From Leptolyngbyaceae cyanobacterium (GTDB lineage: Bacteria > Cyanobacteriota > Cyanobacteriia > Phormidesmidales > Phormidesmidaceae): a DNA stretch of 20,947 nt. This document shows positions 2,605-20,505 of the stretch, piece after piece. Under the pieces are notes generated by a model. The model saw nothing but the letters and a program-made list of their open reading frames with translations, did not search any database and was not told the origin of the DNA. Within the stretch, counting starts at the first letter, position 1. The number at the start of each line of letters is the position of its first letter. The translations under genes and the position numbers were made by a program. The stretch covers positions 1 to 20,947 of the forward strand of contig CBDHHL010000004.1 of assembly GCA_965263355.1 (NCBI GenBank), given 5' to 3'.

Positions 2605-3171
2605 ATGCCCCAAGATAATTCCTCGAGCGCTCTCCAACAGAAGATGGCTTCTCTAAAACAAGCCCTAGCAGAGTCACAGGCTGAAGTACAAGCACTCAAG
2701 CAAAACAATATTGCATTACATACTTTAAACCAAGAACTTGAGCAGCAAGTTCTCACCTGAGTAAACAAGGTACAACAATTACAGACATCTCACTCATCAC
2801 CTATTCCAGAAAATATTAGGCTTGCCCTCGGTACCTCACTAGCTTCACTAGCCCATGACATCATGAAACCATTAAGTTTTCTAATAGGTAATACACAATT
2901 TGTACAAGACAGCATTCGAGAACTGTTTACCGTAATTGATTTGTATCAAAAGGCATTTCCCAATCCAGGCAAAGACCTTGAAGAATCAATCGAGGCCCTT
3001 GATTTAGAGTTTCTCCGTGATGATATCCCAAGACTATTCTCTTCAATACAGCTAGGTTTTCAGAGTGTCGAAAAAGCCGTTAAGCAGCTCAGAGGGTTGT
3101 CTAGCACCGATTATATATCCACACTCCTTCAGACTTTTGATGAACAGCCAGATAACCCAACCAGACCCTAA
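2605..3171 (+). pseudogene. Degenerate histidine kinase fragment (coiled coil + HisKA, no HATPase) with an in-frame TGA
   Basis: GGAGG at 2586-2590, ATG at 2605. TGA at 2758-2760 interrupts an otherwise continuous frame to 3171 containing LGTSLASLAHDIMKPLSFLIGN...LYQ..FP.P...LDLEFLRDDIPRL, which matches the cyanobacterial HisKA pattern LGQLVAGVAHEINNP...DLPKL. Confidence 0.75.
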
Positions 3172-3399: not shown

Positions 3400-3590
3400 G
3401 GGGTGATTAGGTGGAAATGTGGCAGCCTCCTACCCATGATTAGAGGGAAAGTTTCCACCTATCTGCCTTATACGGATGATTAGGTGGAAATATTTCTGCC
3501 TAAGATCCCAATGTGGGCGATTAGGTGAAAATGCATCAGTTTAATCATCCAATACAGGTGATTAGGCAGAAAGTTTCAGTATAACCATCC
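3400..3590. repeat. Tandem palindromic repeat array 2, ~40-41-bp period, 5 degenerate units of GATTAGGTGGAAA-N-TTTCCACCTAATC
   Basis: GATTAG starts at 3405, 3438, 3478, 3519 and 3560. Same TTA-N4-GAAA-N-TTTC-N4-TAA architecture as array 1. Confidence 0.85.
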
Positions 3591-3616: not shown

Positions 3617-4288
3617 CTAGAAAGGAAAATCAACTGCGACATAACCCATCACCGTATCCAACCCTGGATTCGGACTATATAACCCCGCATTCGAAATATG
3701 ATGCCAGCGTACCCCCAGCATCATCCGCTGCTCATCATTAATATTAAATGTCGACCCCAAACCCACCTGGGGCGTAAAATTAAACGTCGAACCCGGAGCT
3801 GGAACAGACTCTGTAGTACCTAGAATCCCAGCACCGCCATCAATATAAACAGACCAATTCTCACCCCGAATCCAGTGCGATCGCACCAAAAAGTTCAAAT
3901 TCGCACCAACCGCATCATCCCCCGGTTGATCAAACGCCAACCCATTCAGTTCCAGATTTACACTATGCCCTTTCGCAAAAAAGTGAGAAGCCCCAGCACC
4001 CACTAACCCAAACGTATCATCATCCCGATCCGTCGCACCGGCTGCCTGGATATACCAACGGTTTTGTCCCCGCTCACCATAGTCAGCAGACTCTTCTTCC
4101 TCATCTGCTTGAACCACCTCAACAGGGATACTATCAGCATCAGCAAGACGAAAATCAGTGGTTCTTGCCGCAGGCACGTCTTCATCCAGGATAGGCATTG
4201 CATAGGCCCCAGTATTAGCCATAATGCCGATACCCAACGCACCCAAGAGAATAGTCAACGCTTTCTTTTGCATAGTGATGATAATCAT
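3617..4288 (-). CDS. PagL-family outer-membrane acyloxyacyl hydrolase / lipid A 3-O-deacylase-like beta-barrel
   Basis: Signal peptide; GSTFNFTPQVGLG; RWHHISNAGL..PNPGLD (H-x-S-N catalytic motif); C-terminal Phe. Confidence 0.85.
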   Translation of the reverse strand: MIIITMQKKALTILLGALGIGIMANTGAYAMPILDEDVPAARTTDFRLADADSIPVEVVQADEEEESADYGERGQNRWYIQAAGATDRDDDTFGLVGAGASHFFAKGHSVNLELNGLAFDQPGDDAVGANLNFLVRSHWIRGENWSVYIDGGAGILGTTESVPAPGSTFNFTPQVGLGSTFNINDEQRMMLGVRWHHISNAGLYSPNPGLDTVMGYVAVDFPF

Positions 4289-4354: not shown

Positions 4355-5455
4355 CTACCTATTATTATCCAGTTGTTTAGGTAGACGTCCCATGGCATCA
4401 ATAAACAACGCGACCAGTTCATCCGTTGTCACCCTGGTTTGCTTCTGAGATGACATCGCGTTTTCCCCCTGATTAAACAAATCATTGGGTCTATATCCCT
4501 GGGCCAGTAGCTGATCCTGAATAAAAATCAGCCGTTTAGCCGCCTGGTGTTCTCCCCATTGATTCAGCATCAAGATAACACCCGCTAACGTCCCCAGGGG
4601 ATTCGCTATGCCTCTTCCTGCAATGTCCGGGGCAGTACCATGCACCGCCTCATACATACCAAAGCCATCGGCATTTAAACTGGCCGAGCCCAACAGACCA
4701 ATCGAGCCAACCAATGCCCCCCCTAAATCACTGAGAATATCGCCAAACAAATTACCAGCCAAAACCACATCAAACGTTTGGGGCCGCATCACCAGCTGCA
4801 TCGCCAGGTTATCCACCAACATGGGTTCTACCACAATATCGGGAAATGCCTGGGCTTCCGCCTGCACCAATTGACTCCAGGGTAAATTAGGCAATGCATT
4901 TTCCTTGTGGGCGACGACCAGGTGCCGCCGACGGTGTTGAGCATAGCGTAGCGCCACCCTAGCAATTCGCCGAATTTCGGCATCGGCATAGTCCATGGTG
5001 TGAAACCCATAGGCCCCCCGCTGATCGCTGCCCCGCCCCGAGGCACCAAAGTAAATGCCACTGACCAACTCACGGACAAACAAGAGATCCACCCCTGCCA
5101 GGCGGTCTGCCTTAATGGGAGAAACCTCCTGCAGGCTGGGCGATGGTCGCACAGGGCGTAGATTGATAAAGAAATCAAAATGTCGTCGCAGTTCCAACAA
5201 ACCACCACGGGTGACTGCGCCAAATAAAATACCGTCAGAGCCCTCACAGAGCGCCAGGGTTTCTGGCGGCAGGGGCTGCCCAAATTTTTGTCGTGCTGGT
5301 TCTCCGATCCAACCGCGCTCAATGGTGAGGGTAAATCCTTCCTGATCCGCCAGTGCCTGCAAAATGGTTAGACTTGCCTCTACTACTTCCGGTCCAATCC
5401 CTTCACCTGGTAAGGCCACAATCCGATAGTGGCGTTCAGCACCATGACGACTCAT
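4355..5455 (-). CDS. Isocitrate/isopropylmalate family beta-decarboxylating dehydrogenase (atypical LeuB-like)
   Basis: LPGEGIGPEV, NLRP, RELVSGIYFG, VDN, NLFGDILSD and EAVHGTAPDIAGRGIANP. The start overlaps the PKS stop (ATGA at 5455-5452). Confidence 0.9.
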   Translation of the reverse strand: MSRHGAERHYRIVALPGEGIGPEVVEASLTILQALADQEGFTLTIERGWIGEPARQKFGQPLPPETLALCEGSDGILFGAVTRGGLLELRRHFDFFINLRPVRPSPSLQEVSPIKADRLAGVDLLFVRELVSGIYFGASGRGSDQRGAYGFHTMDYADAEIRRIARVALRYAQHRRRHLVVAHKENALPNLPWSQLVQAEAQAFPDIVVEPMLVDNLAMQLVMRPQTFDVVLAGNLFGDILSDLGGALVGSIGLLGSASLNADGFGMYEAVHGTAPDIAGRGIANPLGTLAGVILMLNQWGEHQAAKRLIFIQDQLLAQGYRPNDLFNQGENAMSSQKQTRVTTDELVALFIDAMGRLPKQLDNNR

Positions 5456-8400
5456 GTGGCCGCCACCGTTTTGAGAATCATCAGTTCATCTGCGATGGTC
5501 TGCACCGTATGTCGAATTTGTTCTTCTGTATGCAAAGAACTGACAAAGAATCGCAGTCGGGCTGCATCGTAGGGCACCGATGGATACACCATGGGCTGTA
5601 CGTTAATGCCCTGCTGGAATAGGGTATGGCATAACTGCACCGCTTTGTAGGGTTCACCCACAATCACCGGGATAACTGGGGAGTCGTGGCTATCCCCTGT
5701 ATTGAGGCCATGGTCTTTAGCTAGGGAAAGGAATAGTTGCGATCGCTCCTGCCCCTGCTTCACCCGTTCAGGCTCCTGCTGAATAATCCGCAATGACTCT
5801 AACGCTGCCGCCGCATTGGCGGGCGACATACCCACGCTAAACACAAACCCAGGAGCCGTATATTTCAGATATTCCACCAGGGCTGCACAACCTGCAATAT
5901 AGCCACCACAGCTGGCAAAGGTCTTGCTCAATGTACCCATCCATAAATCCACACTGGCGGCCACCACCTCAAAGTGCTCGCCCACACCGCGTCCCGTTTT
6001 GCCCAATACCCCAATTGAATGGGCCTCATCCACCAAAAGCATTGCCTTATGGGCCGTTTTCACCCGAATAAAGTCCGGTAGCGGAGCCAGGTCACCATCG
6101 GTACTGTAAACCCCTTCAATGGTGACCAACACTTTTTCATAGTGGCGACGGTGTTCGCATAGCAATTGATCCAGCGCTTGCCAATCATTGTGGGGAAACT
6201 CGATCATCGTTGCCCCCGAGAGCCGACAGCCCTCTCGAATACTGTTGTGACTCAGAGCATCGTAGAGAATCAGATCTTTTTCTCGGAAGAGATGACCAAT
6301 GGTGGTGACATTGGTAGCATGGCCACCGATATAGGTAATACAATCTTCTGTGCCTAAAAACTGGGCTAACCCCTGTTCTAGCTGACGGTGGAGGGGGCGC
6401 TCACCAGACGACACTCGGCTCGCTGACACAGAGGTACCATATTGGCTAATGGCCGACTGCGCGGCAGAATTCACCCGAGGATCGCCCGATAGGCCTAAAT
6501 AGTTATAGCTAGAGTAGTTAATTAACGATTGACCATTAATTTCCGTCGTATCCTTCGCAGTGCCCCCATGGACCATAAAGAAGGGATTGCCTAACCCTTC
6601 TACCCGATCCAGGTCCTGCCGCAAGCGGCGATAGTCAGCCATTTGAGAGAACTGGTAATGTTCCGGTGGTGGTGTATAGGTGGGTGTGTTTAGTCTCGGT
6701 GGAACTTCTTTAATCACTGTTTTGACATTCTCTTGTTTGGGAGCATGCATAACTATAGGAGATGGTTTTGGGCTTACCTCGGGGGTAGCGCCCTTCGTTG
6801 TTGGTGCAGGAACTGTTTGGTCGATGCTTTCTGTAACCGTTACCATAGGCAGTACAGGGGCAATATCTTGTACCAAATAGTTGGCCAGAGAATTAATGGA
6901 GGGATAGTCAAAGGCCAGGGTTTGGGACACTGGATGATTGAGATTCTTTTGCAGACGGTTGGTAAATTCAACTGCCATGAGAGAATCCATCCCCAGATCG
7001 CCAAACTGTTCGTCGGGGTCAATGGCATCGGCAGTCGTAAAGCCCATCACCTTAGCCAGCTGTGCTTGTAGGTAGGTGGCCAATATCGCTGAGCGTTCAC
7101 CGTCGGACGTTTTTGCCAGCTGTTGCAAGATTTCAGGATTGGTCGCAGTGCCTTTAGATGTCTCGGTCACCGCAGGCATTAACGCCGTTAATAAGGGAGA
7201 ACTGGCACCACTGGCCTGACCACTGGCTGAGTTTATAAACTTAGCCCAGTCCATGGGGATAATGCCGACCTGGGCCCTGGCTTGACGCATCATTTGGCTC
7301 ATCAGTTGCAGTCCCAAGTCTGTCGGAATGGGGGTTAACCCTTGCTCTGTAAAGCGCTGCTGGCTACGGTCATCTAGCTGGGCGACCATCCCTGCATCGG
7401 CCCAGGGACCCCAGTTGAGGCTAAGGCCCGGTAACCCAAGGCTACGGCGATATTGGGCGAATCCATCTAAAAATGCATTGGCCGCTGCGTAGTTACCCTG
7501 GCCGAGGGAACCCATAAGAGACACCATGGAGGAGAAACAAACAAAGTGATCCAGGTCATGTTTTTGGGTCAGCATATGTAGGTTCCATGCACCCGTCAGC
7601 TTAGGAGCCATGACGGCATTAAACTGTTGCCAAGACTGATTGACTAGCAAGCCGTCTGCGAGAGTCCCTGCGAGATGGAAAATTCCCTTAAGTGGCCTAG
7701 AGTTTTTGGCAGAGAGTAGCGGAGAGAGCACTGTTTTGAGTGTGTCTAAATCAGCAACATCTGCCTGAATGACTTGAACTGTAACATCCTTTTTTTGGAG
7801 TTGATCAATAGTTTGCTGAGCCATCTCAGAGGGGGCTCGTCGGCTCAACAGAATGAGCTGACGGGTGCCCTGGTCTGCTAGCCACTGGGCTATGGTTAAC
7901 CCCAATGCACCTAAACCGCCGGTTACAAGATAGGTCGCGTTGGGGTGAATTAGGGATTGGCGGGGTGCGATCGCAGGCAGGGTTAACACCACTTTGCCCA
8001 CATGCCGGGCCTGGGCCATATAGCGAAATGCATCAACAGCCGCTTCAATGGGAAAGACTGTTTTGGGCAATGGGTATAGCGTCTTTGCCTCAAACTCCGC
8101 CATTAAGTGGGTCAAGATGTTGGCAATCAGCTGTGGCTCTGCATCGGAAATATCTAACAGATCAAAGGGAAAATACGCCACATCGGGTCGGGCCGCTTGC
8201 ATTTGTTCAGGTTCCCAGACACCGATTTTGCCAATTTCCACAAATCGTCCCTGGGGTGCTAAGACCTCTAGGCTTTTATCAATAAAGTCTCCATTTAAGC
8301 TGTTAAATACGACATCCACCCCCTGCCCATCGGTGATTGTCAGAATCTCCTCGGCAAAGTCCAAGGTGCGAGAATTCATCACATGGTGAATTCCCATGGA

Positions 8401-11400
8401 TTGTAAAAAGGACCATTTGGGAGGACTCGCGGTTGCAAAAATCTCTGCCCCAATTTGCTGGGCGATTTGCACCACTGCCTGACCCACCCCCCCGGCAGCA
8501 GAGTGGATCAAGATTCGATCGCCCGCTTTGAGCTGCGCACAGTGCACCAGCCCATAGTAAGCCGTTAGAAACGTAGTCGGTACCGTTGCTGCCTCGGCAA
8601 AATCGAGTGTGGAAGGTTTGAGCACCAAAAAGTCCGTGGGCACCGTCACAAATTGACTCAATGTTCCCAGGGTCTGGGCCAGGACCACTTCATCACCTAC
8701 TTGTAATGTGGTCACATCAGGTCCCACAGCCGTGATCACCCCTGCGCATTCTCCACCAAACGGCACGTCCTCGGGGGTGGCAAATCCCATGGCTTCGGCC
8801 ACTGCCTGCAATAGTCCCAGGGCATTTAATACATCACGAAAGTTAAGCCCAGCTGCCTTGACCTGAATCTCTACTTCTCCCGATTGAGGAGCCTGTCGTT
8901 CTGTTGGCATCAGGGTGAGATGATCGAGCACACCGTAGCTGGTCAGACCCACGCGAAATGAATCAGCCTTGGGAATCTCTAATAACGGTTGGGAGGCAGC
9001 TGCTGTAGGGGCAACCAATCGTGCTACAAAGCGATTGTCTTGATGATACGCAATCTGGTCTTCATTATCTGGGTAACACAGATCATCTAGTAGCATCTCC
9101 CAGGTGGGGGCAGTGAGCACCTGGGGCAGATCCAAACAAGTACAGGCCAGATGGGGTTGTTCTAACCGTAGGCTGCGGGCCAGACCCCATAAGGGCATTT
9201 GCTGCAGCTGTACTGAGGACTGTACTTCTACCGCCTGAGTTGCCTGGGTAATTAACCATAGCCGAGCCGATAAGGCAGGCATCTGAGCCAGGGCCAACAC
9301 CAAATGCAGTAAACCACCACAGTTCTGTTGTTGGTCTACGAGGGTGACTTGTTCTTGAGCCGTATCTAATGCCCAAAGATAACCAATCTGACAGTTTAGT
9401 TTTCCCTGCTGTTCGGCAATCAGTGTTGGTAATAAATCGGTAAATAATTGGTCAAAGTCGTCTGGCTTTGACGGATTTAACCTGTAGATATTGTCCTCTA
9501 ACGAGGCCTGATATTGTTCTCCAGCTTGAATTATAAAGCAGCGATTACCTTGTTCACGTAAAGCAGTGGCCAGCCTATTGCCAATCCCTTGGGTATCTGT
9601 AAACAATAGCCAGGTGGCATTATCTGTAGTCGATGTTTGGGGTGCTTTGGTGTGGGGTTGCCAGGTCAGGCTATAGACCCAGTCTTGCCCAACCACTTGG
9701 GGCGACGGCTGCAGCTTGGGTGTCCCGACTAACTGTTTGAGGGCATCATGTTTAACATATTGCAAAGTCATGCCAGTCATCTGGGCGGCCAAGGAGCCTG
9801 TGTCATCCCAAATTAATACATTGGCTTTGAGGGTTTTGACAGTGGCTCCGTTCTTCTGTTCAGGCGGTTGCAATCGTACCCAGCACCACCCTGTAGACCT
9901 GAGGGGACGATAGAAATGGAGCTGGTCTATGCCGACTGGCAAATAGGTTCCCAGGGAGACGTCAGCCTTGACCGCTGCGCCAATGGTTTGAAAACAACCA
10001 TCCAAAAGTGTTGGATGCAGACAATAGGCATTGCTCCTGGGGGTATCAGTCATCTGTAAATGACTGAGAGACTGGTCGTCATGTTGCCAAAGTTGTTGAA
10101 TGGTACGAAAGTGAGGGCCATAGTTTAAGCCCTGCTCGCTGAGTGCCTGGTAGTAGCTGTCTACCGCCACTGGATAGGGCAGCAACGATGTCTGGAGAGA
10201 GGCTAATGACACGGACGGAGCGGTAATCTGGCTTAGGGAGGTGACGCCGGCAGTGGCATGGCGAGTAAATGTGGCATCCTCTATATTGTTTAAGCTAAAG
10301 ACTTGGACAGTGCCTGTTTCCTGTTCTCCCGGTGTCAATACCAATTGTAGAGCTGTAGAGCTGTTCTCAGATAAGGTGAGGGGACGTTCAATGGTTACTT
10401 GGGTCAAGGTGATGGCCTCACTGTTGTGCCAGCGGCAGGCGGCTGCGATCGCACCCTCCACATAGGCCGCCCCCGGTAAAATAACCTGATCTAGTACCTG
10501 ATGATCCTTGAGGTAGCCAGGTCGCTGAGGACTAATCTCACTTTGGTAGCGCTGTTTTGTTGTGCCTGCCAACAACAACCGTTGCCCAATCAACGGATGA
10601 TCGGTAGACATTGCCATAGCTGATACAGGGGCTGCTGGCCGCATGGCCGGAATGGGCGGACCTGACCACCAGTAGCGCTGTCGCTGAAATGGATAGGTGG
10701 GCAGAGTGATGCCAGCACCAGACCGATGAGGAAATATCTCAGCCCAATTAATGGTTGCTCCTTGGGTGTATAGGGCTGCCAGACTAGTTAACAGGCCTGC
10801 CTGCTCTGCCTGGTTTGGACGCAGGCTGGGCAGCCACTGTATATCTTCCACATTGGGCAAACAGCTACGCGCCATACCCAACAAAATTGGCTTAGCCCCA
10901 ATTTCTAAAAAGATGCGTTCCTCTCGTGTACCAAGCGTTTTTACTGCATCTAAACACTTAACGGGTTGGCGCACATGGCTGACCCAATAATCAGCGGTGG
11001 CAATTTCGTCACTGGCCAAGTCCCCCGTTAGCATTGAGATAATTGGCAGTGTGGGTAGTTGAAATGTAATCGATTCTGCCACCTGGCGAAACTCATCTAA
11101 CATGGGCTCCATCAGGGCTGAATGGAAGCCATGGGAAACCGTCAGTTGCTTATGCTGGATGCCTTTAGCCTCAAACTGTTGGATCAGGTTAGCAATCGCC
11201 TCCGCTGTGCCAGAAATTACCGTGCTTTGAGGGCTATTGATGGCTGCGATCGCAGCCCCATATTCCTCTACATAGGGTCTACACTGCTCTACATCTGCCA
11301 TTACAGAGACCATAGCCCCCTCTGCTGGCAATGCTTGCATCAAGCGTCCGCGTTCAGCAATTAACCGCAGGCCGTCTTCCAGACTAAACACCCCTGCTAC

Positions 11401-13329
11401 ACAGGCGGCTACATACTCCCCGAGGCTATGGCCCATCACAACAGTGGGCCAAATTCCCCAAGATTGCCACAGCTGCGCTAAGGCATATTCAAACGCAAAG
11501 AGAACCGGTTGTGTATAGATGGTATCGTCAATGGTGTATTCTGCTGGACCCTTGCGGTACAAAATCTCTATCAAAGGCACATGATAGGATTTTAGAATCT
11601 CCGCACAGCGATTTAAAGCCTCTCGAAACACAGATTGGGTCTCATAGAGTTCTTTGCCCATGCCCACGGATTGAGAGCCCTGCCCCGTAAAGAGAAAGGC
11701 AACATCATCGGCAGTGGATGACTGCCTCGAAACCGCCATGCCTGCTGTTTCTTGTTCGCTGAGCCAGTTCGTTAACTGTGTTTTTAACTGATTGCTGGAT
11801 TCGCTAACGCAGGCTAGCCGATGAGAGAAATGAGAGCGCCGAAGGCTGGCAGCTGCACATAGCTCTCCCACATCTAGATCAGATTGTTCGTCTAATAATT
11901 TGACATAACGCTCTGCTGTTACTCTTAACGCATTACGTCCCTTGGCAGATAGGACTAATAGATGAGGGTGAAGAACATCTAGATTGGTTTTATCTCTCTC
12001 TGGAACCATATCAGAGAGAACAACATGGGCATTGGTACCACCAAACCCAAAGGAATTGATTCCGATATAGGTGGTTTGGGTATCGCCATCTTGAGAAACT
12101 CTCTTTGGTAAAGGGGCTAACTCGGTCTGCACCCGTAATCGCAATTGTTCAAAATTAATCGCGGGATTTGGCTGATAGCAATGGAGACTTGGCGGCATCT
12201 CACGATGTTTTAACATTAGTGCCGCTTTAATCAAACCAGCTACCCCAGCCGCCGTCTCCGTATGGCCGATATTTGTTTTAACTGAACCAATTAGACAAAC
12301 ATCATCCGCTGCTCGTCCCGGCGACAGAACAGCTCCCAAGGCCTGGGCTTCAATGGGATCACCCAGCTTAGTCCCGGTGCCATGGGCCTCCACGTACTGC
12401 ACCGCTGTCGGATCAATATTAGCCTGACGATAGGCGGCTTGAATCACGGCAGTCTGCGCTGTAGCACTTGGGGCTGCCATCCCTTGACTGCAACCATCTT
12501 GATTAACCGCACTACCACGAATCACCGCATAGATAGAATCATCATCCGCTAAGGCCTGGGCCAGGGGTTTTAACACCACCAAACCTGCCCCTTCGCTACG
12601 TACATAGCCATCAGCACTGGCATCAAAGCTTTTACAACGGCCATTGCTCGACATAAAGCCACCTTTCGCAAACCCAGCCGTGACCGTTGGCAACAGCAGC
12701 ACATTGACACCACCGGCAATCGCCACCCTCGACTCCCCTGCCCACAGGCTTTGGCAGGCCAGATGAACGGCCACCAGGGAAGATGAACAAGCCGTATCCA
12801 CTGCCAGACTGGGTCCTTTAAAGTCAAATAAATAGGAAATCCGATTGGCTGCGATACAGTTACCGGTCCCCGTGGTTGCATAGGGATCATTGACTGGTTG
12901 CTGCCACAGCATAATCGAGTAGTCATGGGTACCAATGCCAATAAACACCCCCGTTTGTGACCCGCGCAAAGTGTCAGGAATGTGGCCTGCATCTTCCAGT
13001 GCTTCCCAGGTCACCTCCAGTAAGAGACGCTGCTGGGGATCCATGGTGGTCACTTCCCGAGGCGCAATGCCAAAAAACTGTGGGTCAAACTGATCGACCT
13101 GGGATAAAAAGCCACCCCAGCGAGTATTGGCCTTATCGGGGACAGTCGGGTCAGGATCGTAAAACTTATCCACGTCCCAACGGCTTTCAGGGACTTCCGT
13201 CACACAATCCTGGCCATTGCGCATCATTTGCCAAAAGGCGTCGGGCGTATCTGCCCCTCCGGGATAACGGCATCCAATACCAATGATCGCGATCGGCTCA
13301 GGGGATACAGAAGGGCGAGAAGCACTCAT
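5452..13329 (-). CDS. Type I PKS fused to alpha-oxoamine synthase: KS-AT-DH-ER-KR-ACP-AONS/SPT-like
   Basis: KS: DTACSSS, HGTGT, NIGH. AT: GHSLGE, HGFHS (malonyl-type). DH: HQVLDQVILP, LLDGCFQ. ER: IHSAAGGVG. KR: TGGLGALG, GQGNYAAAN. ACP: LGMDSL. PLP domain: SYNYLGL, SHNSI, EGVYSTDGD, DEAHS, GTLSK. The probable start is ATG 13329 (MSASRPSVSPEPIAIIG) rather than 13464. Confidence 0.95.
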   Translation of the reverse strand: MSASRPSVSPEPIAIIGIGCRYPGGADTPDAFWQMMRNGQDCVTEVPESRWDVDKFYDPDPTVPDKANTRWGGFLSQVDQFDPQFFGIAPREVTTMDPQQRLLLEVTWEALEDAGHIPDTLRGSQTGVFIGIGTHDYSIMLWQQPVNDPYATTGTGNCIAANRISYLFDFKGPSLAVDTACSSSLVAVHLACQSLWAGESRVAIAGGVNVLLLPTVTAGFAKGGFMSSNGRCKSFDASADGYVRSEGAGLVVLKPLAQALADDDSIYAVIRGSAVNQDGCSQGMAAPSATAQTAVIQAAYRQANIDPTAVQYVEAHGTGTKLGDPIEAQALGAVLSPGRAADDVCLIGSVKTNIGHTETAAGVAGLIKAALMLKHREMPPSLHCYQPNPAINFEQLRLRVQTELAPLPKRVSQDGDTQTTYIGINSFGFGGTNAHVVLSDMVPERDKTNLDVLHPHLLVLSAKGRNALRVTAERYVKLLDEQSDLDVGELCAAASLRRSHFSHRLACVSESSNQLKTQLTNWLSEQETAGMAVSRQSSTADDVAFLFTGQGSQSVGMGKELYETQSVFREALNRCAEILKSYHVPLIEILYRKGPAEYTIDDTIYTQPVLFAFEYALAQLWQSWGIWPTVVMGHSLGEYVAACVAGVFSLEDGLRLIAERGRLMQALPAEGAMVSVMADVEQCRPYVEEYGAAIAAINSPQSTVISGTAEAIANLIQQFEAKGIQHKQLTVSHGFHSALMEPMLDEFRQVAESITFQLPTLPIISMLTGDLASDEIATADYWVSHVRQPVKCLDAVKTLGTREERIFLEIGAKPILLGMARSCLPNVEDIQWLPSLRPNQAEQAGLLTSLAALYTQGATINWAEIFPHRSGAGITLPTYPFQRQRYWWSGPPIPAMRPAAPVSAMAMSTDHPLIGQRLLLAGTTKQRYQSEISPQRPGYLKDHQVLDQVILPGAAYVEGAIAAACRWHNSEAITLTQVTIERPLTLSENSSTALQLVLTPGEQETGTVQVFSLNNIEDATFTRHATAGVTSLSQITAPSVSLASLQTSLLPYPVAVDSYYQALSEQGLNYGPHFRTIQQLWQHDDQSLSHLQMTDTPRSNAYCLHPTLLDGCFQTIGAAVKADVSLGTYLPVGIDQLHFYRPLRSTGWCWVRLQPPEQKNGATVKTLKANVLIWDDTGSLAAQMTGMTLQYVKHDALKQLVGTPKLQPSPQVVGQDWVYSLTWQPHTKAPQTSTTDNATWLLFTDTQGIGNRLATALREQGNRCFIIQAGEQYQASLEDNIYRLNPSKPDDFDQLFTDLLPTLIAEQQGKLNCQIGYLWALDTAQEQVTLVDQQQNCGGLLHLVLALAQMPALSARLWLITQATQAVEVQSSVQLQQMPLWGLARSLRLEQPHLACTCLDLPQVLTAPTWEMLLDDLCYPDNEDQIAYHQDNRFVARLVAPTAAASQPLLEIPKADSFRVGLTSYGVLDHLTLMPTERQAPQSGEVEIQVKAAGLNFRDVLNALGLLQAVAEAMGFATPEDVPFGGECAGVITAVGPDVTTLQVGDEVVLAQTLGTLSQFVTVPTDFLVLKPSTLDFAEAATVPTTFLTAYYGLVHCAQLKAGDRILIHSAAGGVGQAVVQIAQQIGAEIFATASPPKWSFLQSMGIHHVMNSRTLDFAEEILTITDGQGVDVVFNSLNGDFIDKSLEVLAPQGRFVEIGKIGVWEPEQMQAARPDVAYFPFDLLDISDAEPQLIANILTHLMAEFEAKTLYPLPKTVFPIEAAVDAFRYMAQARHVGKVVLTLPAIAPRQSLIHPNATYLVTGGLGALGLTIAQWLADQGTRQLILLSRRAPSEMAQQTIDQLQKKDVTVQVIQADVADLDTLKTVLSPLLSAKNSRPLKGIFHLAGTLADGLLVNQSWQQFNAVMAPKLTGAWNLHMLTQKHDLDHFVCFSSMVSLMGSLGQGNYAAANAFLDGFAQYRRSLGLPGLSLNWGPWADAGMVAQLDDRSQQRFTEQGLTPIPTDLGLQLMSQMMRQARAQVGIIPMDWAKFINSASGQASGASSPLLTALMPAVTETSKGTATNPEILQQLAKTSDGERSAILATYLQAQLAKVMGFTTADAIDPDEQFGDLGMDSLMAVEFTNRLQKNLNHPVSQTLAFDYPSINSLANYLVQDIAPVLPMVTVTESIDQTVPAPTTKGATPEVSPKPSPIVMHAPKQENVKTVIKEVPPRLNTPTYTPPPEHYQFSQMADYRRLRQDLDRVEGLGNPFFMVHGGTAKDTTEINGQSLINYSSYNYLGLSGDPRVNSAAQSAISQYGTSVSASRVSSGERPLHRQLEQGLAQFLGTEDCITYIGGHATNVTTIGHLFREKDLILYDALSHNSIREGCRLSGATMIEFPHNDWQALDQLLCEHRRHYEKVLVTIEGVYSTDGDLAPLPDFIRVKTAHKAMLLVDEAHSIGVLGKTGRGVGEHFEVVAASVDLWMGTLSKTFASCGGYIAGCAALVEYLKYTAPGFVFSVGMSPANAAAALESLRIIQQEPERVKQGQERSQLFLSLAKDHGLNTGDSHDSPVIPVIVGEPYKAVQLCHTLFQQGINVQPMVYPSVPYDAARLRFFVSSLHTEEQIRHTVQTIADELMILKTVAAT

Positions 13330-13424
13330 GCGGGCTAAGGGATGTACAGCAGACAGGGTTGAATAAACTGGACTAAATGTAAAAGACCCTTTATTGGAAG
13401 TCAACGGTTGACTGGGTGGGCATT

Positions 13425-14675
13425 CTACCCCATGGCAGAGCTGCTTAAACTCTCCTGTTGCCAAATATTGAGTAACTTATTCACAACCCCCTTCCAACTG
13501 TAATCAGCCATAGCCTGCTGGCCTTGTTGCCCTAAAGTTTTGCGCCACGGTTCATCGGCCAATAGGCGGGTGAGCGATTGCCCAAAACTCACCACATCTT
13601 GCGGTTGAAATAGCAGTCCATTCTGCTCTGGTTGAATGAGGGTGGTCACTCCACCTGCATCCGGGGCCAGTACTGGAATGCCAGCGGCAAATGCCTCCAT
13701 TACTGTCAATCCAAAGGTTTCTTTTTCAGACGCGGTCACATGGATATCACTATTGACCAGTAGGGCAGGTACTTCGTCTGGAGAAATGCGCCCCAACATA
13801 TGAACGTCCAGACCTAATGTCTGTAGCCCGTGATAAACTTCGTTTTTCAGTTCGCCATCCCCGGCAATGACGATGGTTACCCGTTTAACCCAGAGGGCAT
13901 TGTTTGGCTCGTTGACCCAATGGGCAAAGGCTTTTAAGGTAAAACGCCAGCCTTTGTCGGGGGTTAAGCGCCCTAGAAATGTTAGTGTCAGGCTATCCTG
14001 AGGTGCTTCAATGCCATACTGGGTCTGAAAAAAATCGGGCTGACGCTGCAGGGGTTGGAATTTGCTAAGGTCCACACCGAGTAAGCGATCGCACATCACA
14101 TTCCGCAACCCCAACTGCTCTACCCGTGCCTGGGTCACCGGGCTGGAGACCAAAATCGCATCATAGGCATGGAATACGGGCCGCATCACCAACATAGAAG
14201 CCCACTGGAGCAGGGCAATCAGCCAGCCTGGTAGAGGAAAAAAATCCTCAATGTAGTCAATAAAATTTGTATGATAAAAGCCTATACAGGGAATGCCCAG
14301 GGCTTTAGCGTAGGTCACTCCCGGTGCCTGCAATAGTCCTAAAAACAGGCGATCCGGTTCATCCACATGGATTACATCTGGGCCAAATGCCTGCAGTGCC
14401 TGATGTAATCCAGACCGAGCCTGCAGGTTCATATTGCGCTCAAATGCAACCCCCATAAAGGGTTCACTGGGCAAGTTTACCACCTGCACCCCCGGCAAAA
14501 TGTCGCCTTGAAACTCACGCCAGTTGGGATAAACCGCTTCTATGGGCTGGTAGTCAGGACAGAGTACTAATACCTGATGACCTAGTTCGCTCAGGACTCG
14601 CAATCGTTGAGCTAGTGACACCGTCACTCCATCGACAACGGGAAAAAATCCAGAACTTATAATCGCAATTTTCAT
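13425..14675 (-). CDS. Glycosyltransferase family 4 (GT-B, SqdX/PimA-like lipid glycosyltransferase)
   Basis: MKIAIISSGFFPVVDGV, FYHT, GRLTPDKG and ETFGLTVMEAFAAGIPV (EX7E motif). ATG 14675 is preferred over GTG 14687. Confidence 0.9.
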   Translation of the reverse strand: MKIAIISSGFFPVVDGVTVSLAQRLRVLSELGHQVLVLCPDYQPIEAVYPNWREFQGDILPGVQVVNLPSEPFMGVAFERNMNLQARSGLHQALQAFGPDVIHVDEPDRLFLGLLQAPGVTYAKALGIPCIGFYHTNFIDYIEDFFPLPGWLIALLQWASMLVMRPVFHAYDAILVSSPVTQARVEQLGLRNVMCDRLLGVDLSKFQPLQRQPDFFQTQYGIEAPQDSLTLTFLGRLTPDKGWRFTLKAFAHWVNEPNNALWVKRVTIVIAGDGELKNEVYHGLQTLGLDVHMLGRISPDEVPALLVNSDIHVTASEKETFGLTVMEAFAAGIPVLAPDAGGVTTLIQPEQNGLLFQPQDVVSFGQSLTRLLADEPWRKTLGQQGQQAMADYSWKGVVNKLLNIWQQESLSSSAMG

Positions 14676-14848
14676 GATCTGAGGCACAAGTTTGCGAATA
14701 CTTTAGTCGATGTGCTGTCCCTATAGAGCATTATGACCACTGCTTACCGGACCCAAGCAACGGATACCGCCATATCCGACCTGGAAAGCGGTAGATGTAG
14801 CTCAGAGATTAATTTCTACTGTCCGTTATCTCAGCTAGAGGTGACCGT

Positions 14849-17380: not shown

Positions 17381-19027
17381 TTAATCGGGTTTAATGAATT
17401 CGGATTTGGGATTAGACTCTAAAAACCAAAGATTTAAGCCGAACTCCCCAGACTTTAGCTTGTTTGCCTGGTAGACGGAGCGTAATGTGCCTAATTGCTG
17501 ATTTTTGACGATGGTTTTTATCCGTTCGGACGGCGTAAAGAAAAATGTGGGTCTGTCGGGATCGACAATTTTTGCCAGGGTCTCTTCTGGAAAGTTAGGA
17601 CTCGGCAAAATATAGAGACTGACATCAGGATTTAGGTCATAGCTAAGGGAAATCGTATCCTGGATGTAGTGGGGAATCGTAATTACCTGGGGTGCTTCTG
17701 TTTGGTTTATGAGTGTCGTAATGGTTTCATTACTTAGACTACGGCTTTTCTGATAAGGGGATGTCTCCGTTAGCCCAAAGAGGCAAGACATCAGACCCAC
17801 TGACAGCAATAAAGCCATGATTATGCGGCCTCTCTTTTCCCAAAGACAATGACTTAACCAGTAGGCAAGGGCCACTAATACTCCTAAATGTGTCGGCATC
17901 ATATAACGCGCACCGGCAGACGACTGGCCATTGCGCACCAAGTCCCCCAAGAACAACACGGTGGGAACAGCCAGAGCACCCGCCAGCACGTATCCCCAAA
18001 CTGCTTGCGGCGCACGACGCACTAAATAGAAAACGGCATAACCCATCAGGGATAGTGTGGCCGCTGCAATGACGACCTGTATCCCTAGCACCATGGGGTT
18101 ATTGATGGCGATGGGTACATCAAAAAAGAGTACTGCCAGACCATACAGCCAGGCTCCAAAAATCTCCCAGATAGGTAAGGGCAGATACATCCAGCTGGTG
18201 TTGCTTTGGAGGGTTTGCCATTGGCTCACAATAATCCAGGCCCAGGGCAGCATGGTTACTAAGGCTGTGACTGTTGCGATCGCATATCCCCGCCATCGCT
18301 TAGGCTGAAAAAGCAAAACCGCCAGACTTTGCCCCCATACCACCAGCACAGAAAGAATTGACGTATACAGAGTAGGAATTAGCAACAGCGAATAGACGAC
18401 CCAGTGAGTCCAGTGGTTGGTCTGCAACGCCCGCCACAGCCATTGACCAGATAGCAACAGCAGCCAAACCCATAGGCTATAGGGCCGTGCTTCCTGAGCA
18501 TAGGCGACAAAAAAAGGTGAAATGGCCAGTAATCCCATGGCACTCTGGCCGATCACAGACCCATAGCGCGGTTTAGTGTCATCGCTAAAGAGTGTTTGGC
18601 CAAAACCGTACATGGCCAGCAGCGACAGCACACTAAAGATGACAGATAGACTCCGCATCGCCACTACAGAGGTGCCCCATAGTTCTGCCCAGACGCGGGC
18701 TAAGATAAAGTACAGCGGGGCATGTTCAGGGCTTTTGCTCAGTACCCGTAGCAGGTCAGTGCTGTCGCGAGGGACCCTAGAACCAGCGCTTGCGCCATCG
18801 TGCCGAATCCGCTGAAATTTCTGTAAATCGTCTACCGTGAGTGCTTTCCCTGTGGCTACCTGTTCGACTACCTCGGCCTGAGTGTAGCCAGACACCCGCA
18901 TTGAGGTGGCCACCTCGTCTACCCAGTACACCGGTTGTCCCAGGTTGGCGACCCGAAATAAAACACCCAGGCCCACCAGTATGGCCACGATAAAACTCCA
19001 ACGTCGAGACTGGCGAGGGGATATCAC
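17381..19027 (-). CDS. GT-C membrane glycosyltransferase (family 39 / ArnT-PMT-like)
   Basis: Multiple TM helices; YWVDE, EHAPLYF, MRSLS and YAQEARPYSL motifs. Confidence 0.88.
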   Translation of the reverse strand: MISPRQSRRWSFIVAILVGLGVLFRVANLGQPVYWVDEVATSMRVSGYTQAEVVEQVATGKALTVDDLQKFQRIRHDGASAGSRVPRDSTDLLRVLSKSPEHAPLYFILARVWAELWGTSVVAMRSLSVIFSVLSLLAMYGFGQTLFSDDTKPRYGSVIGQSAMGLLAISPFFVAYAQEARPYSLWVWLLLLSGQWLWRALQTNHWTHWVVYSLLLIPTLYTSILSVLVVWGQSLAVLLFQPKRWRGYAIATVTALVTMLPWAWIIVSQWQTLQSNTSWMYLPLPIWEIFGAWLYGLAVLFFDVPIAINNPMVLGIQVVIAAATLSLMGYAVFYLVRRAPQAVWGYVLAGALAVPTVLFLGDLVRNGQSSAGARYMMPTHLGVLVALAYWLSHCLWEKRGRIIMALLLSVGLMSCLFGLTETSPYQKSRSLSNETITTLINQTEAPQVITIPHYIQDTISLSYDLNPDVSLYILPSPNFPEETLAKIVDPDRPTFFFTPSERIKTIVKNQQLGTLRSVYQANKLKSGEFGLNLWFLESNPKSEFIKPD

Positions 19028-19050: not shown

Positions 19051-19890
19051 TCACTCAGCATACCGTGCCATAAAGGTCTGAACGGCATGGTCATAGTGTT
19101 TGCCTGCTACCGTCGGTAGATTACTATGGCCAGCATGCTTGACCCAAACTAATGTTTTGCTGGTAGGCCATGTGTCATAGAGTGTGCGACTCATGGCGGC
19201 GGGCACTACTCGATCAGCGGTGCCATGCATTAGTAAAACTGGCATTGAGAGTGAGCGCACCTTGTCCAATGAGGCAAACTGCTGAGTCAGCAGCTGATCC
19301 AGCGGCAAAATCGGTAGGGGCAGATAATGCTGCACCATGGCTTTCATGGAGGTAAATGTACTTTCGAGAATCAGTCCGGCTACGTTGGGGTGGGATGTGG
19401 CTAGGTGGATTGCGATCGCACCCCCAATCGATCGCCCATAGAGAACAATCCGCTGTGGTGGTATACCCCGCTGGTCATTGAGATAACGCCAAGCTACCTC
19501 AGCATCTTCATACACCTGCTGTTCACTGGGGAACGGACCTGCACTGCGACCGTAACCACGATAGTCAATTACAAATACGCCATAGCCCCACTGATAAAAG
19601 CGCTGCAGTCGATGGGGCAAGTCTCCTAAATTACTACCATTACCATGCAGATACAAAATGACGGGGGAGTCAGTAGGTTCGATAGCAGGGACCCACCAGC
19701 CGTGGATTTTTCCGTCCTGCAGCCAGACATCTGTGTAAGGTATCCCCACATCAGCTGGTGTGCTTTTTAAGACCAGCGATGGAAAAAACATAAATCGTGT
19801 CTGGTAACGCCACAGGCCCCAGCAGGTTAAAAAATAGAGGCCAACCAGGATGCCCATTACTCGGATGGGCCAACGTTGCTTGAATCTCAC
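19051..19890 (-). CDS. Alpha/beta hydrolase (Bem46/ABHD-like serine hydrolase) with N-terminal membrane anchor
   Basis: YLHGNG, DYRGYG, GRSIGG nucleophile elbow, HGTAD and GH catalytic triad motifs. Confidence 0.9.
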   Translation of the reverse strand: MRFKQRWPIRVMGILVGLYFLTCWGLWRYQTRFMFFPSLVLKSTPADVGIPYTDVWLQDGKIHGWWVPAIEPTDSPVILYLHGNGSNLGDLPHRLQRFYQWGYGVFVIDYRGYGRSAGPFPSEQQVYEDAEVAWRYLNDQRGIPPQRIVLYGRSIGGAIAIHLATSHPNVAGLILESTFTSMKAMVQHYLPLPILPLDQLLTQQFASLDKVRSLSMPVLLMHGTADRVVPAAMSRTLYDTWPTSKTLVWVKHAGHSNLPTVAGKHYDHAVQTFMARYAE

Positions 19891-19989: not shown

Positions 19990-20505
19990 TTAGAGCCATT
20001 TAATTGCCCAATAGCCTTGTTTTGGCATATTTTTCTCTACTTCTGTGTACCATTCCTGGGGCTGATAGGTGCCAAACACCCGGTCCCACCAATCTACTGC
20101 CAAACCAAAGTTATGGTGCCACTGGTTGTACTTGTGATGAACATAGTGCACTGGCATCTCCATCCAATCGCACTTGACTGGGTTATCATGCTGCAACTGA
20201 TGGGCATAGGCAGCAAAGATGGCGTAGGTAATGCCGCCCAGGGTGCAGCACACGCCAATCCGCCAGCCCATTACAAACGTATTGGCCATCATCGGTGAGG
20301 TGCCCACAACATAGTTGCGAAGTTCCAGCCAAAAGCCCTGTCCAGTATTTTCCCGATGGTGCTCCACATGCACCTTACCAAAGGTACGTGGGAAAAAGTG
20401 CATAAGGCGATGCAGCCAGTATTCGACAAAGCTGGCAAATATAAAAGTGGCTACAAACCAGCCGAAATATCCTATGTTTTCAACAATATATGCCTTAATG
20501 TCCAT
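19990..20505 (-). CDS. Fatty acid hydroxylase / sterol desaturase family di-iron membrane enzyme
   Basis: His boxes HRLMH, HVEHH, HQLQH and HYVHH, plus NFG...WWDRVFGT. Confidence 0.9.
   Translation of the reverse strand: MDIKAYIVENIGYFGWFVATFIFASFVEYWLHRLMHFFPRTFGKVHVEHHRENTGQGFWLELRNYVVGTSPMMANTFVMGWRIGVCCTLGGITYAIFAAYAHQLQHDNPVKCDWMEMPVHYVHHKYNQWHHNFGLAVDWWDRVFGTYQPQEWYTEVEKNMPKQGYWAIKWL

Follow-up and report, generated by a model that had tools for sequence, protein, structure and literature searches.

The 20,947-base contig CBDHHL010000004.1 of a Leptolyngbyaceae cyanobacterium (assembly GCA_965263355.1) was analysed in its entirety and is referred to here as the window. It carries a gene in which a type I polyketide synthase (PKS) is fused to an alpha-oxoamine synthase (AOS), among genes for glycosyltransferases and an outer-membrane protein (Table 1). 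The open reading frame (ORF) occupies 5452..13464 when read from a TTG codon; its first ATG, at 13329, gives a protein of 2625 residues whose stop codon ends at 5452, with the ketosynthase (KS) domain beginning at residue 11. The KS is followed by acyltransferase (AT), dehydratase (DH), enoylreductase (ER), ketoreductase (KR) and acyl carrier protein (ACP) domains. A Pro-rich linker of approximately 80 residues, read from the translation, leads from the ACP to the C-terminal AOS domain, and no Pfam match to a thioesterase family was found in the 2625-residue protein. A chance origin of the frame is excluded, because it is open over 7.9 kb and holds seven ordered domains, each with an E-value of at most 1.5e-14.

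All domains retain their catalytic motifs. The KS contains DTACSS (at 178), HGTGT (316) and NIGH (353), supplying the Cys and both His residues, and the AT contains GHSLG (633) and HGFH (733), the latter of which we take to be a malonyl-type motif. In the DH, HQVLDQVILP at 943 (His943) is accompanied by DGCFQ at 1110; here Asp replaces the Gly of the textbook HxxxGxxxxP motif (HxxxDxxxxP), the sole departure among the motifs checked. The remaining PKS motifs are the NADPH motifs HSAAGGVG (1609) of the ER and TGGLGALG (1803) of the KR, the Tyr motif YAAAN (1947) of the KR, and GMDSL (2113), with the DSL serine, in the ACP. With every catalytic motif present and the domains in canonical order, the PKS part is a fully reducing type I module. 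The AOS domain shows the hallmarks of the pyridoxal 5'-phosphate (PLP) fold-type I enzymes of the BioF/KBL/ALAS/SPT superfamily (SPT, serine palmitoyltransferase): the stacking His of SHNS (2360), the Asp and His of DEAHS (2434) and the PLP Lys of TLSK (2466).

An earlier, sequence-only reading of this DNA had described the same KS-AT-DH-ER-KR-ACP series with a C-terminal PLP-dependent AOS and no thioesterase. Its ORF coordinates, domain order and named motifs are all borne out, on the minus strand, as is the lack of a thioesterase match. Its proposal that the AOS would release the ACP-bound chain as an alpha-aminoketone is likewise supported by the domain order and by membership of the AOS family.

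Table 1 Genes and domains of the window, with the evidence for each. Locus counts, here and in the text, come from tblastn of window proteins against 45 related loci and are lower bounds, many loci being cut by contig ends.
Feature	Position	Residues	Strand	Evidence
Fused type I PKS-AOS gene, KS-AT-DH-ER-KR-ACP-AOS, 2625 aa	5452..13329		minus	ORF, translation, Pfam, motifs
KS	12178..13299	11-384	minus	PF00109 8.3e-101, PF02801 3.7e-43
AT	10756..11697	545-858	minus	PF00698 1.5e-62
DH	9739..10599	911-1197	minus	PF21089, PF14765
ER	7984..8883	1483-1782	minus	PF08240, PF00107, PF13602
KR	7396..7938	1798-1978	minus	PF08659 3.4e-67
ACP	6874..7074	2086-2152	minus	PF00550 1.5e-14
AOS release domain (Aminotran_1_2, SgaB-type, SPT-like)	5494..6525	2269-2612	minus	PF00155 6.2e-48
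3-Isopropylmalate-dehydrogenase-like (IPMDH-like) paralogue	4355..5455		minus	PF00180 3.6e-90; start overlaps PKS stop by 4 bases
PagL-like outer-membrane protein	3617..4288		minus	PF09411 3.9e-17; after IPMDH-like gene in at least 11 of 45 loci
GT4 glycosyltransferase	13425..14687		minus	PF00534, PF13439; directly upstream of PKS; beside PKS-AOS in at least 14 of 45 loci
Response-regulator-GAF-GGDEF-EAL (cyclic di-GMP signalling) gene	14849-17173		plus	Pfam; between GT4 and GT39
GT39-type (GT-C, PMT/ArnT-like) membrane glycosyltransferase	17381..19027		minus	Weak PMT_2 match, 8.8e-4
Alpha/beta hydrolase	19051..19890		minus	PF12146, PF00561
Fatty-acid hydroxylase superfamily protein, 171 aa	19990-20505		minus	Pfam; adjoins alpha/beta hydrolase

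Phylogenetic placement of the AOS domain

The closest characterized relative is found in the two-gene cluster of Pseudomonas fluorescens MYb115, which comprises SgaA, an iterative type I PKS, and SgaB, an AOS (Peters et al., Nat Commun 2025; PMC12134224). The products of PfSgaAB are C24-C28 sphinganines and phosphoglycerol sphingolipids, and purified PfSgaB condenses acyl-CoAs and L-serine to 3-ketosphinganines, with L-Ser used virtually exclusively over L-Ala and Gly (PMC12134224). Homologous two-gene clusters were counted 6101 times in that work; the genus table for them (Supplementary Data 4) includes Achromobacter (71), Amphritea (12) and Rhodocyclaceae (2) and contains no cyanobacterial genus, and neither 'cyanobacteri' nor 'fused' occurs in the main text.

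Among NCBIfam models, the window AOS domain scores highest on bioF (354.8-360.1 bits) and reaches 299 bits on KBL, all under the curated cut-offs. On the canonical SPT models it obtains 290.0 bits (NF047599, cut-off 500), 313.1 bits (NF047600, cut-off 640) and 221.3 bits (NF047603, cut-off 670). The best match among solved structures is S. multivorum SPT (1.3e-67), with ThAOS and human SPTLC2 next. In the alignment with the S. multivorum enzyme, His138, Ser185, Asp210, His213, Thr241, Ser243 and Lys244, which are PLP or carboxylate residues according to Ikushiro et al. 2023 (PMC10196870), are identical, and the carboxylate-binding C-terminal Arg aligns. The loop facing the amino-acid side chain reads TSVSASR in the window, compared with TGCAGSR in S. 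multivorum SPT.

A phylogeny of the AOS family, of the kind proposed in the sequence-only reading, was calculated against SPT and BioF. After removal of two truncated rows and one duplicate, it comprised 62 rows. On the PKS-linked side these are the window, 33 cyanobacterial PKS-AOS proteins, one stand-alone cyanobacterial AOS, five AOS enzymes from split PKS+AOS pairs and four planctomycete AOS; the remainder are five cyanobacterial BioF and six alphaproteobacterial SPTs, all above cut-off, and seven other paralogues. The 44 rows formed by the window and the other cyanobacterial, split and planctomycete AOS are a single clade with 100/100 support on a branch of length 1.81, within which the cyanobacterial fused AOS domains are monophyletic (34 rows, 100/99). 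The SPTs above the NCBIfam cut-off form a clade of their own (100/99) and the BioF rows lie elsewhere; the deep order among the groups is left unresolved by the 62-row tree. Identity as a canonical bacterial SPT is ruled out by the sub-cut-off scores together with the separate clade. The comparison with SPT, BioF, SxtA and Fum8 made in the sequence-only reading thus stands at the level of the AOS family, but the domain is neither BioF nor canonical SPT, and that reading lacked the direct homologue, SgaAB.

Three of the split loci in the clade, from Achromobacter (L042), Amphritea (L045) and Rhodocyclaceae (L044), belong to taxa that all appear in the table of SgaAB holders of Peters et al. The PfSgaB sequence, printed in the supplementary information of that paper, contains ASYNYLG, YGTSVSASR, IHNS, DEAHS, GTLSK and GFLYSVGM, and these segments are invariant or nearly so across all 44 clade rows, window included. 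At the loop equivalent to YGTSVSASR, canonical SPT has GSGTTGSR and BioF has GTGSTGSR. We conclude from these sequence comparisons that the window AOS is SgaB-type, and hence that the window holds a fused SgaA-SgaB-type enzyme. Because the domain is SgaB-type and carries the PfSgaB pocket segments, L-serine is its most likely substrate, on the strength of the shared pocket sequence and the PfSgaB assays.

Occurrence of the fused form

The fused form of PKS-AOS is common in cyanobacteria. A homologue search with residues 2080-2625 as the query, directed at proteins of 1443-4594 residues, returned 1745 matches at E <= 0.001 among 8000 candidates scored. Among the matches listed, with the window protein excluded, 102 of 119 have at least 2400 residues and a Pfam content running from KS through Aminotran_1_2; listed sources include Synechococcus sp. 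PCC 7335, Stanieria PCC 7437, Pleurocapsa PCC 7319, Thermoleptolyngbya, Hydrococcus and Aphanothece. Shorter AOS forms, 60-78% identical and found for example in Nostoc, Calothrix, Chroococcidiopsis and Moorena, are divided among the 120 matches listed into stand-alone proteins of up to 470 residues (61) and proteins of 471-686 residues (59), most of the latter listed with an ACP. In an even sample of 251 cyanobacterial genomes, an SgaB-type AOS (E <= 1e-110) is present in 15, and in five of these it lies within a frame of at least 2400 residues.

Four ACP-AOS didomain proteins (P0226 from Moorena bouillonii, P0157, P0177 and P0184; genera Moorena, Calothrix, Nostoc and Chroococcidiopsis) are 62-64% identical to the window domain; as a cerebroside has been reported from Moorea producens (cited in PMC8895605), they may be the enzymes behind it. 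At five loci (L002, L007, L030, L032 and L034) the PKS-AOS frame is split into two to five pieces; gene decay, frameshifts or faulty assembly could each account for this. Downstream of the frame, L002 and L007 have neither the IPMDH-like nor the PagL-like gene. Four loci labelled Gracilibacteria, Alphaproteobacteria, Tatlockia and 'uncultured bacterium' (L019, L024, L026 and L033) have AOS domains nested inside the cyanobacterial clade and are most likely misbinned cyanobacterial contigs. In Thermogutta (L041, 5166-9854), the AOS is N-terminal, not C-terminal, in a 1562-residue ORF.

Partner synthase

The window PKS-AOS opens directly with its KS, and Pfam places no loading domain in the protein. 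In all five genomes of relatives examined (G001-G005), a separate partner synthase, PKS1, is encoded with the domain series A-ACP-KS-AT-DH-ER-KR-ACP (A, adenylation), and each genome has one adenylation-domain homologue. PKS1 is intact in G001 (2874 residues) and G005 (2798 residues), and the same series occurs in pieces in G002, G003 and G004. In G005 (locus L108) it lies directly upstream of PKS-AOS and collinear with it, ending 7 bases before the PKS-AOS start; an upstream DH-ER-KR-ACP end is also present in L021, L027 and L034. A two-module line is suggested because all five relatives encode this A-ACP-PKS partner, collinear in G005. The designation 'one-protein synthase' in the sequence-only reading is therefore not upheld: to judge from these sequences, the window enzyme is probably not one.

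Two affinities are seen in the PKS part. The window KS is 41-49% identical to the KS of split PKS+AOS systems versus 38-39% to that of PKS1, and the AT, DH, ER and KR are 31-52% identical to PKS1 versus 25-45% to the split-type PKS. The partner adenylation domain scores best on long-chain fatty-acid ligase/fatty acyl-AMP ligase subfamilies (233-286 bits), far under their cut-offs.

Neighbouring genes

Evidence for the GT39 assignment of 17381..19027 comes also from its Atlas neighbours, which are named glycosyltransferase family 39 (score 0.99). The gene is linked to GT4 and the PKS in at least 9 of 45 loci, and also in G003 and G004, where orthologues of the alpha/beta hydrolase (53-60% identity) lie upstream of it. 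The contiguous order in both of these genomes is alpha/beta hydrolase, GT39, GT4, PKS-AOS, IPMDH-like and PagL-like. GT4 itself occurs in three arrangements: it lies upstream of PKS-AOS in the same orientation, upstream in divergent orientation (L015, L025), or downstream (L022-L024, L026). The persistence of its linkage to PKS-AOS through all three speaks for selection on that linkage. In the split loci of Proteobacteria, Geobacteraceae and Nitrospira, capsule-type genes stand beside the AOS (ABC-2 transporter, GT4 or KpsC/KpsS-like Capsule_synth, Poly_export). The conserved neighbours, a line of evidence absent from the sequence-only reading, thus point, as far as gene content can indicate, to a glycosylated cell-envelope lipid.

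Two further window genes were considered as cluster members and rejected. No counterpart of the GGDEF/EAL gene was found next to the cluster at any of the 45 loci or in extended flanks, and GT4 and GT39 are adjacent in G003 and G004; the gene looks like an insertion into the window cluster. Fatty-acid hydroxylases form a superfamily that includes sphingolipid hydroxylases, but for the member at 19990-20505 no homologue was found beside the cluster in the same loci and flanks. Pfam scanning of ten window ORFs revealed no short-chain dehydrogenase/reductase (SDR; KDSR-type, SgaC), no N-acyltransferase and no loading module. An SDR family near the AOS in L010, L035 and L037 (Acaryochloris) has one orthologue, 58-71% identical, in each of G001-G005; for this candidate ketoreductase, NCBIfam gives only generic SDR names.

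The PKS+AOS pair lies inside capsule-like loci in Nitrospira, Achromobacter, Geobacteraceae, Rhodocyclaceae and Amphritea (L040, L042-L045), with ABC-2 permease and ATPase and GT2 genes included, which suggests that the split-locus lipid may anchor an exported glycan. A conserved protein of 367-409 residues with no Pfam family immediately follows the AOS in L040, L043 and L044. The PagL-like protein has HHISNAG near its C-terminus and an Asp 12 residues past the Ser, presumably corresponding to the His-Ser-Glu catalytic arrangement of PagL; on this motif it may be an active outer-membrane deacylase. The 3' part of a group II intron (domains V/VI) lies at 620-704 on the minus strand (Rfam, 63.1 bits versus a gathering score of 40). 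Between 575 and 3600 there is a single ORF of at least 100 residues (2863-3171), which has no family match, and no reverse-transcriptase ORF is apparent. Short repeat families occur in the window at 1399-1531 and 3401-3542.

IPMDH-like gene and associated enzymes

The IPMDH-like gene directly follows the AOS in at least 16 of 45 loci. Its product obtains 309.7 bits on leuB (TIGR00169; cut-off 353.2), and G001-G004 each encode, besides an IPMDH-like paralogue (295-328 bits), a true leuB elsewhere (524-538 bits); a role as housekeeping leuB was rejected on both grounds. G005 has leuB alone, and its PKS-AOS lacks an IPMDH-like neighbour. Aligned with solved IPMDHs, the protein keeps the Arg, Tyr, Lys and Asp that are the catalytic residues of these enzymes, has a 13-residue deletion before the GLL segment, and has Arg at the Glu position of PExGLL.

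The gene has two partners, a fused LeuD-LeuC-like (aconitase-like) protein of the HacA family, which passes the subfamily cut-off, and an isopropylmalate synthase (IPMS)/NifV-like protein, which is under all cut-offs. Of the 29 PKS-AOS genomes examined, 23 contain the complete trio and the other six contain none of it. The IPMS-like gene is divergent beside the partner PKS1 in G002, G003 and G004. In G003 (L074) and G004 (L077), the LeuD-LeuC-like gene is divergent from an Mqo/DAO-like FAD oxidoreductase, which is followed by a Wzy_C (O-antigen-ligase-like) gene and, in G003, by an alpha/beta hydrolase as well. Ten of the 251 sampled cyanobacterial genomes have an aconitase-like orthologue, four together with an AOS and six without an SgaB-type AOS (E <= 1e-110), so that the trio is not exclusive to the PKS-AOS pathway. 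By its homologies, the trio would lengthen a 2-oxoacid by a single carbon, as a module that accompanies that pathway more often than expected from its overall distribution. The AOS pocket segments are identical in lineages with and without the trio, and starter supply is favoured over amino-acid supply for this reason; our best guess from the sequences is that the trio supplies the starter unit.

Relation to characterized systems

As in PfSgaAB, the chain would come from a fully reducing type I PKS with a single module and pass to an AOS working as an SPT; the AOS active-site segments and the absence of a thioesterase are further points in common. In the split loci, a synthase of 2519-2534 residues with the series KS-AT-DH-ER-KR-ACP is followed by an AOS of 440-448 residues, and in L042, L043 and L045 this order is the same as in the window PKS, also without a thioesterase. 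In the window, by contrast, both proteins form one 2625-residue chain joined by the Pro-rich linker, and the host is cyanobacterial. SgaA is described as iterative, but relatives of the window have the additional A-ACP-PKS partner. Instead of an SgaC-type SDR, the window has GT4, GT39, IPMDH-like and PagL-like genes around the fusion, and the identity of its AT, DH and ER to the split-type PKS is no more than 25-37%. On these comparisons the window enzyme is related to SgaAB and would work alike, yet it is fused, cyanobacterial, apparently bimodular and set in another gene context.

Canonical SPTs (Sphingomonas, Caulobacter, Sphingobacterium; PDB entries 3A2B and 8GUH) share with the window domain the PLP fold-type I AOS architecture and a carrier-protein-bound acyl donor, and the His, Asp, His, Lys and C-terminal Arg of the window align with theirs. 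They receive the acyl chain from the fatty-acid pool via a dedicated ACP and an acyl-ACP synthetase, whereas the window chain would be PKS-built; the window domain also lies in a separate clade, below the SPT cut-offs, and its loop is TSVSASR rather than TGCAGSR or GSGTTGSR.

SxtA (saxitoxin) and RedL (prodiginines) are likewise carrier-protein-AOS fusions, but SxtA, like RedL, PigH and TamD, belongs to lines that lead to toxins or pyrrole pigments instead of saturated long-chain bases. In the lines of TamD (tambjamine; PMC4698589) and of PMC3870968, too, an AOS behind an ACP carries out decarboxylative condensation with an amino acid; no KS-AT-DH-ER-KR-ACP-AOS protein is among the seven AOS-containing lines in Table 2 of Milano 2013 (PMC3870968). 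The A-ACP-AOS proteins of Bacteroidota and Planctomycetota are another type of carrier-protein-AOS fusion, and those of planctomycetes (L036, L038) fall in the same AOS clade as the window without having a PKS part. In the fungal pathways of fumonisin (Fum1 and Fum8), sphingofungin and myriocin, a chain from a highly reducing PKS is joined to an amino acid by an AOS-family enzyme to give a sphinganine-like backbone. These pathways are eukaryotic, employ separate proteins and use alanine or aminomalonate, and their products are toxins that inhibit sphingolipid metabolism.

Proposed pathway and alternatives

Taken together, we consider it rather likely that this natural SgaA-like/SgaB-like fusion is the final module of a polyketide-type route to a sphingoid base, the module from which the chain is released. 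As read from the sequence, the KS, AT, DH, ER and KR would extend an acyl chain with malonyl units and reduce it fully to a saturated acyl-ACP thioester. In keeping with the chemistry of the family, the PLP domain would then bind an amino acid, most likely L-serine, the carbanion of which would attack the ACP thioester; with loss of CO2, a 2-amino-3-keto long-chain base of the 3-ketosphinganine type would be released and a thioesterase would be unnecessary. By analogy with the relatives, the acyl primer would be provided by a separate A-ACP-KS-AT-DH-ER-KR-ACP synthase encoded elsewhere, in a two-protein assembly line, or else the module could act in an SgaA-like iterative mode. The neighbours suggest that an SDR encoded elsewhere would reduce the base, that sugars would then be added by GT4 at the cytoplasmic face and by GT39 at the periplasmic face, and that the end product would be an envelope or outer-membrane glycolipid and a possible target of the PagL-like protein. 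The sequence-only reading had likewise arrived at a 3-ketosphinganine-like base. Its proposal gains from the activity of PfSgaB, the closest characterized relative, which makes 3-ketosphinganines from L-serine (PMC12134224), although for the window enzyme both serine and the long chain are predictions.

Several observations weigh against the sphingoid-base pathway or parts of it. NCBIfam puts the AOS domain under no SPT equivalog (290-313 bits versus 500-670). The proposed link to PfSgaB, which is not among the 62 tree rows, consists of motifs read by eye and the genus-level match of the split loci. The window AT, DH, ER and KR are closer to the modular partner PKS1 than to the split-type PKS, as judged by identity. 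The partner adenylation domain reaches only 233-286 bits on fatty-acid ligase subfamilies, and a small starter without iteration would give a short product, not a long-chain base. The window itself has no loading module, SDR or N-acyltransferase. The putative glycolipid fate is read from gene order, and the 2-oxoacid-elongation trio could signal an unusual building block.

The last of these points bears on the possibility that the chemistry is as proposed but the amino acid is not serine, being either alanine or glycine, with 1-deoxy-type bases as products, or a homologated amino acid made by the trio, which would give a non-sphingoid aminoketone lipid. Cyanobacteria do make homo-amino acids with such trios (HphABCD), and the overlap of the IPMDH-like gene with the PKS stop codon, its recurrence after the AOS (at least 16 of 45 loci), the co-occurrence of the full trio with PKS-AOS (23 of 29 genomes, with none of the trio in the other six) and the aligned catalytic Arg, Tyr, Lys and Asp would all fit such a role. 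However, the AOS pocket segments do not change with the presence of the trio and are shared with the split PKS+AOS enzymes and the serine-specific PfSgaB, the trio is not dedicated to the pathway (an SgaB-type AOS is missing from 6 of the 10 sampled genomes that carry the aconitase-like orthologue), and the position of the IPMS-like gene beside PKS1 in G002, G003 and G004 fits starter supply better. We regard a non-serine substrate as unlikely.

We think it quite improbable that the enzyme yields something diffusible, either a secondary metabolite or a signal, in place of a structural envelope glycolipid; products of that kind would be an aminoketone or hydroxyketone resembling CAI-1/LAI-1, or a sphinganine analogue with the character of a toxin. 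The AOS family does include the CqsA/LqsA autoinducer synthases, the PfSgaAB products are termed secondary metabolites (PMC12134224), a small starter unit is possible and a cyclic di-GMP signalling gene lies inside the window cluster. Yet the domain scores 168 bits on the CqsA-type model, far under the cut-off of 428, on which identity as such a synthase was rejected; the GGDEF/EAL gene is not at that position in G003 or G004; and the genes conserved around the fusion encode a pair of glycosyltransferases and an outer-membrane protein, with the split homologues among capsule-type export genes (ABC-2 transporter, KpsC/KpsS-like, Poly_export). That the AOS serves as BioF in making biotin, or that the fusion arose through faulty assembly or annotation, is scarcely credible. 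Although bioF is its top NCBIfam model, the highest score of 360.1 bits is below the cut-off of 426.45 (TIGR00858), the BioF rows lie outside the clade, a bioF that passes is encoded separately in all of G001-G005, and the fusion recurs in 102 of 119 of the matches listed at 2400 residues or more, from many assemblies.

Implications

Sphingolipids have been reported only twice from cyanobacteria, as acetylsphingomyelin in Scytonema julianum and as a cerebroside in Moorea producens (PMC8895605). According to Belton et al. 2022, no genetic basis had been reported for them, and the one AOS that Nostoc punctiforme has falls with BioF and does not produce 3-ketodihydrosphingosine (KDS) (PMC8895605); the remark in the sequence-only reading that such lipids are poorly established in cyanobacteria agrees with this account. 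No description of a cyanobacterial fused PKS-AOS enzyme was found in full-text literature searches. A term search of the available text of Calteau 2014 (PMC4247773) gave no occurrence of 'amino-7-oxononanoate' or 'sphingo', and a sole 'aminotransferase' in an unrelated figure legend.

A tentative and somewhat doubtful extension of the sphingoid-base pathway is that this operon provides the genetic basis that has been missing for cyanobacterial sphingolipids, with a base from a PKS-fused SPT converted by GT4 and GT39 to a glycosphingolipid-like outer-membrane component, and with the chain primed by an unusual acid made by the trio. If so, this component would have its counterpart in the sphingomonad lipids that take the place of lipopolysaccharide or supplement it, and filamentous and pleurocapsalean cyanobacteria would possess a widespread class of envelope lipids that has escaped notice so far. 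The 2025 work demonstrated PKS-made sphingolipids in one Pseudomonas, and a search for two-gene clusters would not necessarily count a fused gene. As a single polypeptide that would build, carry and release its chain, the enzyme is a convenient subject for the mechanism and engineering of AOS-type chain release. Because it is common in cyanobacteria and sits among two glycosyltransferases and an outer-membrane protein, the fused PKS-AOS is a concrete candidate for the source of cyanobacterial sphingoid and cerebroside-like lipids.

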